64,000 nucleotides of DNA from Octopus vulgaris (Eukaryota). Positions 6,851 to 64,000 of the stretch are shown in pieces. The notes beneath the pieces are model-generated. The model made no database searches and was not told where the DNA came from. It was given only the letters and a program-made list of their open reading frames with translations. The position numbers and the translations under genes are program-made. Location: the NCBI GenBank assembly GCA_951406725.2, contig OX597818.1, positions 65,162,001-65,226,000 on the forward strand. The letters are read 5' to 3'. Each line of letters opens with the position of its first letter. Position 1 is the first letter of the stretch.

Positions 6851-7337
6851 TGTCAGCCTTCTTTTTATACGCAAAATATACTGTTAAGTGAGACTAACAC
6901 GCGGACGTAGTACGGTGTTTCCTAGGGCTAAATAAAAGTAGCATTCTTCACTTTCATGGGACTGTCACATGAAGTTGATAACATACTATCACTCATTGCG
7001 ACTTGTCAAAAAAAAAAAAGCTTATCCCGGGCCAATAATTGTGGATTTTACAGAGTAGCACATTCTATGGTTTGGCTATTTGATTTAGAGGCCGAGTAGC
7101 CGTGAGCACTCATAAATATCATTTTGTCTCCTTTACTCTTTAACAAAGAGAGATCAACATTCTGTCTCTATCTTGCCTCAAAATTTGAATTCTTGCCCCA
7201 GCTCTAAGTTTCCCAATGAGTTTAATTTCTCCCACAGTTCACAAGATACGCATTCCACCTTCCCAATACTTATTTCTCCCTTCTCTATCCGCTGACTAAT
7301 TGGATCGCAGAATTTTTTCTACTGTATTACTATGTAC

Positions 7338-7755
7338 TTATTTATTTATTACCCACAAGGGGCTAAACACAGAGAGAACAAACAAGGATAGACAAACGGA
7401 TTAAGTCGATTATATCGACCCCAGTGCGAAACTGGTACTTATTTAATCGACCCCGAAAGGACGAAAGGCAAAGTCGACCTCGGCGGAATTTGAACTCCGA
7501 ACGTAGCGGCAAATGAAATACTTATTTCTTTACTACCGACAAGGGGCTAAATATAGAATGGACAAACAAGGACAGACAAACGGATTAAGTCGATTACATC
7601 GACATCAGTGCGTAACTGGTACTTATTTAATCGACCTCGAAAGGATGAAAGGCAACGTCGACCTCGGCGGAATTTGAACTGAGAACGTAGAGACAAACGA
7701 AATACTGCTAAGCATCTCACCCAGCGTGCTAACGATTCTGCCAGCTCGACACCTT
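7338..7755 (-). mobile_element. tRNA-derived SINE family A, dimeric
   Basis: A-box-like tggcagaatcgttagc and B-box-like gttcaaattcc on the minus strand; two tandem bodies; probable TSD ctgtatt(ac/gt)tatgtac at 7322-7337 and 7756-7771. Confidence 0.9.
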
Positions 7756-9899: not shown

Positions 9900-10475
9900 C
9901 AAATTATTGCCACATATGCAACTTGGGGGGAATGGATTAAGTCGAATACATCAACCCCCGAGCATAACTGGTACTTATTTAATCGACCTAAAAATGATGA
10001 AAGGCAAAGTCGACCTCGGCGTAATTTGAACTCAGAAAGTAACGGCTGACGAAATACCCATTTCTTTATTGCCTACAAGAGGCTAAACAGAGGGGGGACA
10101 AACAAGGACAGACAAACGGATTAAGCCGATTACATCGACCACAGAGCGTAACTAGTACTTAATTCACCGATCCCGAAAAGATTAAAGGCAAAGTCGACCT
10201 CGGCGGAATTTGAACTCAAAACGTAACGGCAGACGAAATACCTATTTCTTTATTACCCACAAGAGGCTAAACATAGAGAGGACAAACAAGGACAGACAAA
10301 CGGATTAAGTCGATTACATCAACCCCAGTGCGTAACTGGTACTTAATTTATCGACCCCGAAAGGACGAAAGGCAAAGTCGACCTCGGCGTAATTTGAACT
10401 CAGAAAGTAACGGCAGACGAAATACCGCTAAGCATTACGCCCGGCGTGCTAACGTTTCTGCCAGCTCGCCGTCTT
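9900..10475 (-). mobile_element. SINE family A, trimeric (184-bp internal period)
   Basis: gtcgacc recurs at 10009, 10193 and 10377; single tRNA-like head at the right end. Confidence 0.9.
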
Positions 10476-57839: not shown

Positions 57840-58328
57840 AATACGAAAGGACGAAAGGCGAAGTCCAACTCGGTGCAATTTGAACTCAGAATGTTAAAAA
57901 AGACGAAATACCTATTTCTTTATTACCCACAAGGGGCTAAACACAAAAGGGACAAACAAGGACAGACAAACGAATTAAGCCGATTATATCGACCCCAGTG
58001 CGGAACTGTTACTTATTTAATCGACCACGAAATGATGAAAGGCAAAGTCGACCTCTGCGGAATTTGAACTCAGAACGTAGCGCCAGACAAAATAACTATT
58101 TCTTTACTACCCACAAGGGGCTAAACACAGAGCGGACAAACACGGACAGACAAAGGGATTAAGTCGATTATATCGACCCCAGTGCGTGACTGGTACTTAT
58201 TTAATCGACCCCGAAAGGCTGAAAGGCAAAGTTGACCTCAGCGGAATTTGAACTCAGAACGTAGCGTCAGACGAAATACGGCTACGCATTTCGCCCGGCG
58301 TGCTAACCATTCTGCCAGTTCGCCGCCT
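57840..58328 (-). mobile_element. SINE family A, about 2.4-mer
   Basis: Three successive aatttgaactcagaa motifs; one head at the right end. Confidence 0.9.
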
Positions 58329-59340: not shown

Positions 59341-59409
59341 TGTATATATATACTTATGTATATATATTATTTAAACATATATATATGTATATATACATAT
59401 ACATGTATA

Positions 59410-59463
<54 letters not shown>

Positions 59464-59582
59464 AATCAAGGAACGGCCATAATAGGCCATTCACCCACTA
59501 GAAATAACAGCCAAAAGCTTTAACCGCAAAATAACGTCAATTCCGTAAACCAGGAGAAAATCAAAAAAACATTTACCCTGTA

Positions 59583-59689
59583 ATTTCTTAGACGATGCAC
59601 CGTTTCATCTACTGTTTAATGGAAAACTAACCTGATTAAATTAAATCAAGCCAATCTACCATAGGCCCTTAGATTCATCAGTAAGAAAT
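59583..59689 (-). ncRNA. Type I hammerhead ribozyme, copy 1
   Basis: Reverse complement of 60996-61102; GUC cleavage C corresponds to position 59591. Confidence 0.85.
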
Positions 59690-60073
59690 AGCCAAGCCGG
59701 AACAGATATTTTTCACGAGGCATTCTCGTTGCTACCTCGTCAATATCTGACCTAAAATTTTCAAATCGTCGCACTCGCGCCAAATTTATCGGCAGCAAAT
59801 AAATATAAGCCGCCGATTCCATTACGGAATTAACCAGAAAATTCATAATTAATCAATATAGGGTGGCAAAAAAAATTTTGTAGAATTCTTTTGCCACCAG
59901 CGGCCTAGTGGGAAAAAATTAAATAGTCATAAACCATTTTTAAGTTCAACATCACAATCAAGGAACGGCCATAATAGGCCATTCACCCACTAGAAATAAC
60001 AGCCAAAAGCTTTAACCGCAAAATAACGTCAATTCCGTAAACCAGGAGAAAATTAAAAAACATTTACCCTGTA

Positions 60074-60180
60074 ATTTCTTAGACGATGCACCGTTTCATC
60101 TACTGTTTAATGGAAAACTAACCTGATTAAATTAAATCAAGCCAATCTACCATAGGCCCTTAGATTCATCAGTAAGAAAT
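60074..60180 (-). ncRNA. Type I hammerhead ribozyme, copy 2
   Basis: Same motif, 491 bp from copy 1. Confidence 0.85.
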
Positions 60181-60564
60181 AGCCAAGCCGGAACAGATAT
60201 TTTTCACGAGGCATTCTCGTTGCTACCTCGTCAATATCTGACCTAAAATTTTCAAATCGTCGCACTCGCGCCAAATTTATCGGCAGCAAATAAATATAAG
60301 CCGCCGATTCCATTACGGAATTAACCAGAAAATTCATAATTAATCCATATAGGGTGGCAAAAAAAATTTTGTAGAATTCTTTTGCCACCAGCGGCCTAGT
60401 GGGAAAAAATTAAATAGTCATAAACCATTTTTAAGTTCAACATCACAATCAAGGAACGGCCATAATAGGCCATTCACCCACTAGAAATAACAGCCAAAAG
60501 CTTTAACCGCAAAATAACGTCAATTCCGTAAACCAGGAGAAAATTAAAAAACATTTACCCTGTA

Positions 60565-60671
60565 ATTTCTTAGACGATGCACCGTTTCATCTACTGTTTA
60601 ATGGAAAACTAACCTGATTAAATTAAATCAAGCCAATCTACCATAGGCCCTTAGATTCATCAGTAAGAAAT
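60565..60671 (-). ncRNA. Type I hammerhead ribozyme, copy 3
   Basis: Same motif, 491 bp from copy 2. Confidence 0.85.
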
Positions 60672-60995
60672 AGCCAAGCCGGAACAGATATTTTTCACGA
60701 GGCATTCTCGTTGCTACCTCGTCAATATCTGACCTAAAATTTTCAAATCGTCGCACTCGCGCCAAATTTATCGGCAGCAAATAAATATAAGCCGCCGATT
60801 CCATTACGGATTTTTTTGCCACCCTATATTGATTAATTATGAATTTTCTGGTTAATTCCGTAATGGAATCAGCGGCTTATATTTATTTGCTGCCGATAAA
60901 TTTGGCGCGAGTGCGACGATTTGAAAATTTTAGGTCAGATATTGACGAGGTAGCAACGAGAATGCCTCGTGAAAAATATCTGTTCCGGCTTGGCT

Positions 60996-61102
60996 ATTTC
61001 TTACTGATGAATCTAAGGGCCTATGGTAGATTGGCTTGATTTAATTTAATCAGGTTAGTTTTCCATTAAACAGTAGATGAAACGGTGCATCGTCTAAGAA
61101 AT
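60996..61102 (+). ncRNA. Type I hammerhead ribozyme, copy 4
   Basis: Stem I ATTTCTTA(60996-61003)/TAAGAAAT(61095-61102); CTGATGA 61004-61010; stem II ATCTA/TAGAT (61011-15/61074-78); GAAA 61079-82; stem III ACGGTGCATCGT; GTC 61092-94. Confidence 0.87.
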
Positions 61103-61323
61103 TACAAGGTAAATGTTTTTTAATTTTCTCCTGGTTTACGGAATTGACGTTATTTTGCGGTTAAAGCTTTTGGCTGTTATTTCTAGTGGGTGAATGGCCT
61201 ATTATGGCCGTTCCTTGATTGTGATGTTGAACTTAAAAATGGTTTATGACTATTTAATTTTTTCCCACTAGGCCGCTGGTGGCAAAAGAATTCTACAAAA
61301 TTTTTTTTGCCACCCTATATTGA

Positions 61324-61354
<31 letters not shown>

Positions 61355-61366
61355 CATACACACATA

Positions 61367-62164: not shown

Positions 62165-62365
62165 AATGAAGGCCATATATAAAATGAACTAGCAGTTCGC
62201 CAACCATTATCGATAAAATGAATTAACGGTTCGCCAAACGTGTTCGATAAAATGACTTTGCGGTTCGCCAAACGATATCGATAAAATGACTTAGCAGTTC
62301 GCCAAACCTGATCGATAAAATAATGTAGCTGTTTGCCAAACGTAATCGATAAAATGACCTAGCGG
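62165..62365 (-). repeat. 34-bp satellite, about 6 copies in reverse orientation
   Basis: Repeated atcgataaaatga...gcggttcgccaa. Confidence 0.9.
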
Positions 62366-62612
62366 TTCCTCAGGATATACGGGATGCTAACATCATTACG
62401 CTTTACAAAAACAAAGGTGACCGTGGTGATTGTAACAATGACCGTGGAATATCTCTTCTAAGCACTGTTGGAAAGGCCTCTGCTCGCGTTATCCTGTCCA
62501 GGCTGCAACTGCTTGCTTCTCGAATTTATCCAGAATCGCAGTGTGGCTTTGAAAGAAGCAGATCAGCTATTGACATGATATTCTCCATACGCCAACTGCA
62601 GGAGAAATCCAG
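62363..62612 (+). pseudogene. RTE-clade LINE reverse transcriptase N-terminal fragment
   Basis: VPQDIRDANIITLYKNKGDRGDCNNDRGISLLSTVGKASARVILSRLQLLASRIYPESQCGF..RSAIDMIFSIRQLQEK. Confidence 0.9.
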
Positions 62613-62812
62613 ATTCTGGATAAATTCTGCGATTCTGGATAAATTCGAGAAGCAAGCAGTTGCAGCCTGGACTGGATAACGCGAGCAGAGGCCTTTCCAA
62701 CAGAGCTTCGAAGAGATATTCCACGGTCATTGTTCCACGGTAATTCAATCACCACAGTCACCTTTGTTTTTGTAAAGCGTAATGATGTTAGCATCCCGTA
62801 TATCCTGAGGGA
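62613..62812 (-). pseudogene. Inverted duplicate of the same RTE RT fragment
   Basis: Reverse complement of about 62366-62540 with small local duplications (ttctggataaattc x2; ttccacggt x2). Confidence 0.9.
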
Positions 62813-64000
62813 CTGCTATGTTATTTTATCGATCACGGTTGGCGAACCGCAAAGTCATTTTATAGATATCGTTTGGCGAACCGTTAATTCATTTTATCGA
62901 ACATGTTTGGCGAAACTTTAATTCATTTTATCGGTAATGGTTGGCGAACTGCTAGTTCATTTTATCGATCATGTTTGGTGAACAGCTAGATCATTTTATA
63001 GATATCGTTTGGCGAACCGCTAATTCATTTTATAGATATCGTTTGGCGAACCTTTAATTCATTTTATCGATAATAGTTGGCGAACCGCTATGTCATTTTA
63101 TCGATCTTGTTTGGCGAACCGCTATTCGTTTTATCGATCACGTTGGGCGAACCGCTAGCTCATGTTATCGATCATATTAGGCGAACTGCTAGGTCATTTA
63201 ATCGAACACGGTTGGCGAACAGCTAGGTCATTTTATCCATCTCGTTTGGCGAACCGCTAATTCATTTTATAGATATCGTTTGGCGAACTGGTAATTCATT
63301 TTATCGATCATGGTTGGCGAACCGCTAGGTCATTTTTATCGATCAGAGTTGGCGAACCGCTAATCATTTTATCGATCACGATTAGCGAACCGCTAATTCA
63401 TTTTATCGATTCCGTGGGCGAATCGTTAAGTCATTTTATCCATCACGGTTGGCGAACCGCTAGTACATTTTATCAATCACGTTTAGCGAACCGCTAATTC
63501 ATTTTATCGATCACGTTTGGCGTACCGATAAATCATTTTATCGATTACTTTTGGCGAACCACCAGGTCATTTTATCGATCACGTTGGGCGAACCACTTAT
63601 GTCATTGTATCGATCAGTCTTGGCGAACCGCTAGGTCATTTTATCCATCACGTTAGGCGAACATCTAAGTCTGACAGCCATCACTAGTCATTTTATCGAT
63701 TATATTTGGCGAACCGCTAGGCATTCTATCGATACGTTTGGCGAACCGCTAAGTTATTTTATCGAACAAGATTCGCGAACCGTTCGGTCATTTTATCGAT
63801 CTCGTTTGGTGAACTGCGAAGTCATTTTATCGATCGCGGTTGGCGAACCGCTAAGTCATTTCCTCGATCATTCTATCGAACGTTTGGCGAACCGCTAAGT
63901 TATTTTATCGATCAAGATTGGCGAACCGTTAGGTCATTTTATCGATCTCGTTTGGTGAACTGCGAAGTCATTTTATCGATCGCGGTTGGCGAACCGCTAG
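62813..64000 (+). repeat. 34-bp tandem satellite (consensus about ttggcgaaccgctaagtcattttatcgatcacgt), roughly 34 copies, running off the window end
   Basis: Direct reading; diverged units with conserved ggcgaac and ttttatcgat blocks. Confidence 0.93.

Follow-up and report, generated by a model that had tools for sequence, protein, structure and literature searches.

Paired 3′ ends in head-to-head insertions of a 491-nt hammerhead retrozyme in the Octopus vulgaris genome

Introduction

In a 64,000-nt stretch of the Octopus vulgaris genome (GenBank assembly GCA_951406725.2, contig OX597818.1, positions 65,162,001 to 65,226,000; hereafter the window, numbered from its first letter), a tandem repeat carrying a ribozyme motif switches orientation, raising the question of how a repeat came to be inserted as 2 arms pointing away from each other. 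Retrozymes and their circular RNAs have already been described (PMC7229834), and the available parts of that paper and of a preprint (bioRxiv 10.64898/2026.07.22.740005) propose them as non-autonomous partners of Penelope-like elements (PLEs). As far as its available text goes, the preprint derives this link from distribution and phylogeny, without insertion anatomy, attributes tandem growth to local amplification, and presents the mobilization of animal retrozymes as a proposal so far. PLE insertions are described as carrying an inverted arm, a one-sided tail of 30–40 nt and a target duplication, which in Adineta PLEs amounts to 8–10 bp around the whole unit, and several PLE clades prefer (TA)n targets (passages of PMC3846280 and PMC8557442). 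Self-priming on an antisense template has been proposed for head-to-head Penelope structures (in PMC3846280) and a self-priming/resolution model for the tail (in PMC8557442), and the available portions of PMC8557442 and PMC11167929 call the origin of the inverted arm and one-sided tail unresolved. The family analyzed here is young, with hundreds of near-identical copies, which makes rules of insertion countable.

Results and discussion

The 2 arms at the window locus

In ribozyme sense, orientation switches at 60810/60811 (ccattacgga|tttttttgccacc), where the assembly sequence bears out the flip reported in a preliminary description of this DNA. Positions within the 491-nt unit are numbered from m1, the first base 3′ of the hammerhead cleavage site. 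The left arm (59459..60810, minus strand) comprises 1352 nt, or 2.75 units, and runs from m254 at its 5′ end to m131 (..GATTGTGAT|ATAT), hereafter site A, without the tail; the right arm (60811..61331, plus strand) comprises 521 nt, or 1.06 units, and runs from m208 to m237 (..GATTAATTAT|ATAT), hereafter site B, with the tail. Thus, the arms indeed run outward and end at different positions of the unit, each followed by ATAT. The 106-nt "tail" between the 2 sites (m132–m237) occupies 61226..61331 on the plus strand and contains a strong predicted hairpin (61278–61314). The whole insertion lies between a (TA)n-rich target flank on the left (59343..59458) and a (TA)n target flank on the right (61332..61358). 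Because only 2 of 1351 aligned bases in the left arm and 2 of 521 in the right arm depart from the family majority, the insertion is young.

The head-to-head (5′-to-5′) junction is blunt, with microhomology of 0, and the 25 nt of its sequence are found nowhere else in the genome. No contig bridging 60810/60811 is found among those listed from 4 public runs, an absence that is uninformative after filtering, and one joint among the listed read contigs is an ordinary unit continuation rather than this junction, which is documented by the assembly only. A long-read fold-back chimera or an assembly error at this locus, with which the lack of a bridging contig would agree, is nevertheless very unlikely, since the arms are unequal in length, end at different sites, adjoin different flanks and carry private substitutions; furthermore, 95 joints linking left-arm to right-arm positions were counted in contigs of other public runs. 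Nor is the head-to-head layout due to chance, given that the arms are 99% complementary over their 521-nt overlap and that the layout recurs at 67 of the 100 loci mapped (see below).

A second, unrelated fold-back structure adjoins the element (62175–64000), with a 34-bp minisatellite in inverted arms (62179–62368 versus 62815 onward) and an inner inverted repeat at 62431–62541/62627–62737. The window also contains a 184-bp tandem repeat at 3 sites (7335–7706, 9934–10426 and 57843–58278).

A non-coding unit with a conserved hammerhead motif

Each unit contains what we take, from the definition of the motif, to be a type I hammerhead. The left arm carries 3 copies on the minus strand, namely an outer one (59584..59688, limits taken from the unit numbering, predicted cleavage at 59591), a middle one (60075..60179, predicted cleavage at 60082) and an inner one (60566..60670, predicted cleavage at 60573), and the right arm carries 1 on the plus strand (60997..61101, predicted cleavage after 61094), making 4 in the window. 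The motif consists of a 7-pair stem I (60997–61003/61095–61101 in the right arm), CUGAUGA (61004–61010), a long stem II, GAAA (61079–61082) and a 4-pair stem III capped by a UGCA loop, with cleavage predicted after GUC. In searches against Rfam, nothing in the window reached the gathering score of any family, and the right arm gave no hammerhead hit even at E values up to 5. The genome holds 988 exact matches to the ribozyme core. The invariant core positions show 1 change in 1165 bases versus 999 in 52,733 across the whole unit. The free position of the hammerhead is variable, the cleavage base is substituted only from C to A, 1 stem II pair changes from A-U to G-C in 4 loci, and stem I of a sister retrozyme family (see below) carries 2 double changes. 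By this substitution pattern, the core is under constraint.

The unit is low in GC (36%) and non-coding: the longest open reading frame overlapping the window element has 83 codons' worth of residues (83 aa), and no frame with RT and GIY-YIG domains is present in the element. A 66-aa frame of the unit, considered as a piece of a PLE protein, was rejected for lack of a match to the PLE protein compared. Contigs from 2 presumed RNA runs span most of the unit, although strand, ends and circles are not readable from contigs; a loose end in them was traced to a single truncated copy (L156), which was rejected as a partner element. Singleton changes show no A-to-G excess. Judged by these features, the 491-nt repeat is best classified as a non-LTR retrozyme, protein-less and with a predicted self-cutting motif. 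It resembles the metazoan non-LTR retrozymes described in the available literature, which consist of non-coding, low-GC tandem units with a type I hammerhead each, dispersed as dimers to multimers. RNA circles are known for described retrozymes, whereas the present family is known from DNA sequence and has a long stem II.

Two fixed 3′ ends, always paired

The retrozyme is present in many hundreds of copies: exact-pattern counts over the genome gave 429 ends at m131 followed by TA and 713 ends at m237 followed by TA. A search of the 2.8-Gb genome returned 1050 candidates, 40 of which were scored. In total, 100 loci were mapped in 3 samples: the best 40 BLAST loci, which include the window locus and are biased toward long, young arms; 40 loci found by one end and taken in sequence along contig 1; and 20 further contig-1 loci anchored on the ribozyme core instead of the ends. 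Outer ends fall into 2 classes 106 nt apart in the unit, site A (m126–137, mostly 131) and site B (m230–246, mostly 237). Two arms are present at 78 loci and a single arm at 22. Clean two-arm insertions, 68 in number, were obtained at 67 loci (61 called by script and 7 read individually in the ribozyme-anchored sample), and all 68 combine an A end with a B end; neither A+A nor B+B was encountered in the 100 loci. If ends were chosen independently and equally, the chance of A+B in all 61 script-called pairs would be 0.5^61 = 4e-19. In L051, L081 and L168 the second arm measures just 8–20 nt and is consistent with A+B by eye, as are the rearranged L163 and L173, and one end lies outside both classes at 6 loci (L033, L040, L044, L091, L099 and L176). 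The junction in the window is therefore one ordinary case of a family rule.

The inner ends, by contrast, are spread across the unit: arms range from 0.06 to 11 units and elements from less than 100 nt to more than 5 kb. A-arm and B-arm lengths show a modest correlation (rho 0.31), which is of no help in choosing among mechanisms. Given this range of arm lengths, the excess of the right arm in the window over one unit, 28–30 nt depending on how the AT common to arm and flank is assigned, is close to the value of about 29 nt first reported, yet it carries no meaning as terminal redundancy and instead marks a random truncation point. Similarly, the circular permutation of 3′ ends that had been expected is replaced, in the tabulation over 100 loci, by 2 fixed sites. 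Fixed ends had been named as the mark of a DNA transposon or MITE, and such an element with long terminal inverted repeats would account for the arms; however, the 2 outer ends are unlike in sequence, total length and junction are different in nearly all loci, many copies have only one arm, and the ribozyme core is constrained. The terminal repeats do not match, which refutes this explanation and leaves it a negligible probability. By analogy, the fixed 3′ ends would instead correspond to the known PLE start sites and "tail".

Sites A and B each lie ~16–19 nt past a predicted hairpin and both contain UUGAUU, which in this position is a candidate start signal. At 3 loci (L056, L094 and L108), the B end is separated from the TA run by additional A-rich or stuttered bases, which may have arisen by repeated priming or untemplated addition.

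Shared variants and a probable common template of the arms

Compared across 26 common polymorphic sites, the 2 arms of a locus agree in 1002 comparisons and disagree in 7, against 333 disagreements expected if they were independent. In addition, 12 of 54 pairs share between their arms a total of 19 alleles that are private to the locus, "private" being defined relative to the 80 loci of 2 samples out of several hundred. Arm agreement could alternatively result from a single source locus being active at a time or from gene conversion. The concordance refutes, at the family level, 2 independent insertions into one TA tract. TA tracts are hot spots, one locus (L097) has 2 insertions 1 kb apart and some copies are abutted by unrelated PLE ends, but in the two-arm elements no TA separates the arms, pairing of A with B is strict, variants are common to both arms and a single target duplication encloses the whole; we regard this origin as highly improbable.

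The arms often extend over several units. Among 31 loci of at least 2.5 units, 159 variant positions carry one and the same base throughout all units of the 2 arms, some of them also locus-private, with 158 singleton positions and 20 mosaic positions, the latter confined to 8 loci. Fixation in every unit calls for a one-unit bottleneck and hence favors a one-unit circle as template; rolling around such a circle is, by a small margin over an even chance, how we would explain the multi-unit arms. A circular template, one of the 2 kinds suggested in the preliminary description (circular or multimeric), is thus plausible from the variant distribution. Otherwise, multimeric transcripts, template jumps or later duplication would be the source; a linear multimer as template, or tandem duplication at a later stage, has a substantial chance of lying behind the multi-unit arms, though short of an even one.

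The corresponding alternative to the circle, which leaves two-strand priming in place, posits a linear template (an uncleaved multimeric transcript, or cleaved monomers linked through template jumps), with long arrays arising afterwards through unequal crossover, and we give it somewhat less than an even chance. Most arms cross the cleavage site (59 of 71 in class A and 49 of 70 in class B), indicating that in many cases the template had not been cleaved or had been re-ligated. Just 3′ of the cleavage site (m1–30), the end-anchored sample has 18 inner ends versus 4.7 expected. Of 22 stops of this kind, 14 come on the first pass, as run-off from a cleaved linear monomer would yield; the excess would agree with cleaved linear RNA as template in some cases or with a pause at stem I, and it is missing from the BLAST-ranked sample (4 versus 4.4 expected). 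The mosaic positions in 8 of the 31 loci and L047, an 11-unit arm in which 4 variants recur with a two- or four-unit period, the four-unit pattern resembling later duplication, likewise favor a linear template, the period suggesting block duplication after insertion or a multimeric template; multimeric templates or later duplication do occur too. The anole enzyme discussed below used unprocessed RNA, according to the available text of PMC11167929. On the other hand, the fixed and in part locus-private variants require the one-unit bottleneck, the context of the cleavage site is almost free of added or lost bases, and repeated truncating copying would shorten linear arrays with time.

Junctions and targets

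Overlaps of at least 2 nt are present at 27 of 46 insertion-free junctions, as compared with 17% in random joins; these overlaps were derived from BLAST ends and include a few long ones that are imperfect or due to hairpins, which makes the figure approximate. Inserted bases occur at 15 of 61 junctions. Near-symmetry is seen at 11 of 61 versus 3.1 expected, several of them at hairpins, and in 46 of 61 pairs, the window locus among them, the span of one arm contains its partner. Both observations would follow from a single priming event with self-priming fold-back on cDNA or antisense RNA, the second outer end arising through endonuclease resolution, and shared variants would need no extra assumptions. 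In the remaining 15 pairs, however, each arm extends outside the span of the other, so neither can have been copied from its partner, and it is mainly these pairs that disfavor self-priming as a general route. Moreover, arm B contains arm A in 34 pairs and is contained in it in 12, so that either site would have to serve as primer or resolution site, and 50 of the 61 junctions are asymmetrical. Fold-back as the route for the family is therefore unlikely, although it may operate in a minority of insertions. Two loci with different flanks (L041 and L042) have a common junction (m202/m58, 6-nt microhomology), with A arms of nearly equal length and B arms differing by 4 units.

Retrozyme insertions target AT-rich DNA, namely TA tracts. 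Target duplications are readable only where the TA target is imperfect, and most of the 69 two-arm sites are pure TA and uninformative; duplications of 10–15 nt around the whole two-arm unit were recognized at 5 (L070, L101, L157, L161 and L170), and 4 sites with imperfect flanks (L055, L056, L072 and L094) lack one. A duplication on both sides suggests nicks 10–15 nt apart, each leaving a 3′ end able to prime. L041 lies inside a TA tract that forms part of an abundant host repeat, with more than 40 empty paralogous matches among the retrieved sequences, and is the sole case of this kind in the 61 pairs tested. Consequently, the earlier claim that both 3′ ends are anchored in one (TA)n tract holds at other loci, as seen from L041 and the duplications; the flanks of the window locus, pure TA on each side, are uninformative on this point.

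Proposed priming from both target strands

The pairing of A with B, the variants shared between arms, the target duplications and the junction microhomology argue for priming from both target strands, and we consider it likely that an enzyme borrowed from a PLE cuts both strands and primes at A and B on one RNA, the cDNAs being joined head to head. The two-arm layout and the TA-flanked ends lend support to the PLE-style inversion and TA target originally suggested, and the A+B combination in 61 of 61 pairs, the shared variants and the duplications do the same for 2 priming events at opposite strands of one break. The link to PLEs is drawn because autonomous PLEs of this genome also end in TA at 2 sites ~35–40 nt apart. 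In the proposed scheme, the enzyme would nick the 2 strands of a TA-rich target 10–15 nt apart, producing two 3′ ends. Priming by one of these would take place at m131 (site A) and by the other at m237 (site B), the probable reason being that the enzyme is a dimer and grips one RNA with one active site per start site. The cDNAs would be of variable length, often continuing past the ribozyme site and over several units, after which their ends would be joined, often by short microhomology, and the second strands filled in. Counting against two-strand priming are the 22 single-arm loci and the 6 with an end outside both classes, the surplus of near-symmetrical junctions that fold-back would give, the length of the tail (106 nt versus 30–40 nt in described PLEs), the lack of a match between the unit and the pLTRs of 77 PLE-bearing loci, and the 4 imperfect flanks without duplication.

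A narrower version, in which a dimeric Penelope-type enzyme acts on a one-unit circular ribozyme RNA, sets its 2 active sites at 2 different fixed positions and copies round the circle from each strand of a single break, is offered tentatively, as somewhat less probable than not. If true, obligate A+B pairing would account in general for the inverted arm and the tail on one side of PLE insertions, and retrozyme arrays would be multimeric from insertion onward. The rules of a single start site at each end, a common template for the 2 arms and a 10–15-nt stagger separate two-strand priming from self-priming and are open to test in the existing in vitro PLE assay.

L1 twin priming, reportedly described by Ostertag and Kazazian in 2001, is said to involve priming by both target strands and cDNA ends that meet head to head with microhomology, the second primer using a variable internal site and the cDNAs covering adjoining, non-overlapping parts of the RNA. 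In the retrozyme, by contrast, neither start site varies and the arms have whole units in common.

The element is of a known kind, and what is new is a sharper, testable rule of end pairing. As in endonuclease-bearing PLE units, at least as these are described in the available sources, an inverted 5′-truncated copy stands head to head with its partner, a tail is present at one end and a duplication surrounds the whole; unlike in those units, there is no open reading frame, the tail measures 106 nt and arms reach 11 units. Those sources call the PLE tail optional or "often at one end"; retrozyme pairing is strict and counted. The closest biochemical parallel comes from the available text of PMC11167929, according to which the anole Poseidon enzyme PAc cuts and extends both strands of an AT-rich target in vitro, uses 2 internal RNA start sites bounding the tail, with the choice of site not seen to depend on the strand, and is predicted to dimerize. 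The AT-rich target and the 2 start sites bounding the tail are shared with the retrozyme; the template here is a non-coding repeat, and the inverted two-arm structure belongs to the retrozyme, such products being undiscussed for PAc in that text. Obligate A+B pairing is not predicted from the lack of strand difference in the anole enzyme alone. With regard to retrozymes, inverted arms and fixed ends are undescribed in the available text of PMC7229834, where "inverted" occurs 0 times, and in that of the preprint, and both arms of the dispersed insertions are often multimeric here, unlike under the local amplification put forward in the preprint. Within the open-access literature, we found no statement of an obligate pairing of 2 ends or of such retrozyme anatomy.

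PLEs and a sister retrozyme in the same genome

A GIY-YIG scan and a protein search revealed many autonomous elements with RT and GIY-YIG domains, and their CxxxxCxxC linker suggests that they belong to the Neptune group as characterized in passages of PMC8557442. In the first family, elements end in TA at 2 sites 40 nt apart; contigs 1–3 hold 100 no-tail and 19 tail ends, and all 6 of 6 head-to-head pairs are mixed. A young autonomous member with many intact copies (L143:1244–6460, relatives L140–L149) has an upstream open reading frame of ~480 aa, a 781-aa RT and GIY-YIG frame, a 504-bp pLTR and a 40-nt tail. The second abundant family (L178–L206) has 784-aa frames, TA targets and a tail of ~35 nt. 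Comparison of the retrozyme unit with the pLTRs at the 77 PLE-bearing loci, out of thousands of candidates, yielded no meaningful match, and the 2 abundant Neptune-like families, tried as the source of the partner enzyme, show no similarity to the unit.

The sister retrozyme has a unit of ~470 nt that is collinear with the 491-nt unit (L202:166–640, minus strand; L209–L228), with compensated changes in stem I; its B end is conserved, and its A end has shifted. Among its 20 loci, 3 contain clear mixed pairs (L221, L225 and L226) and none contains a same-site pair. Other hammerhead-bearing repeats stand beside PLE fragments (L118:448, plus strand, and 3050, minus strand; L117; L131), and one of these is present in both orientations.
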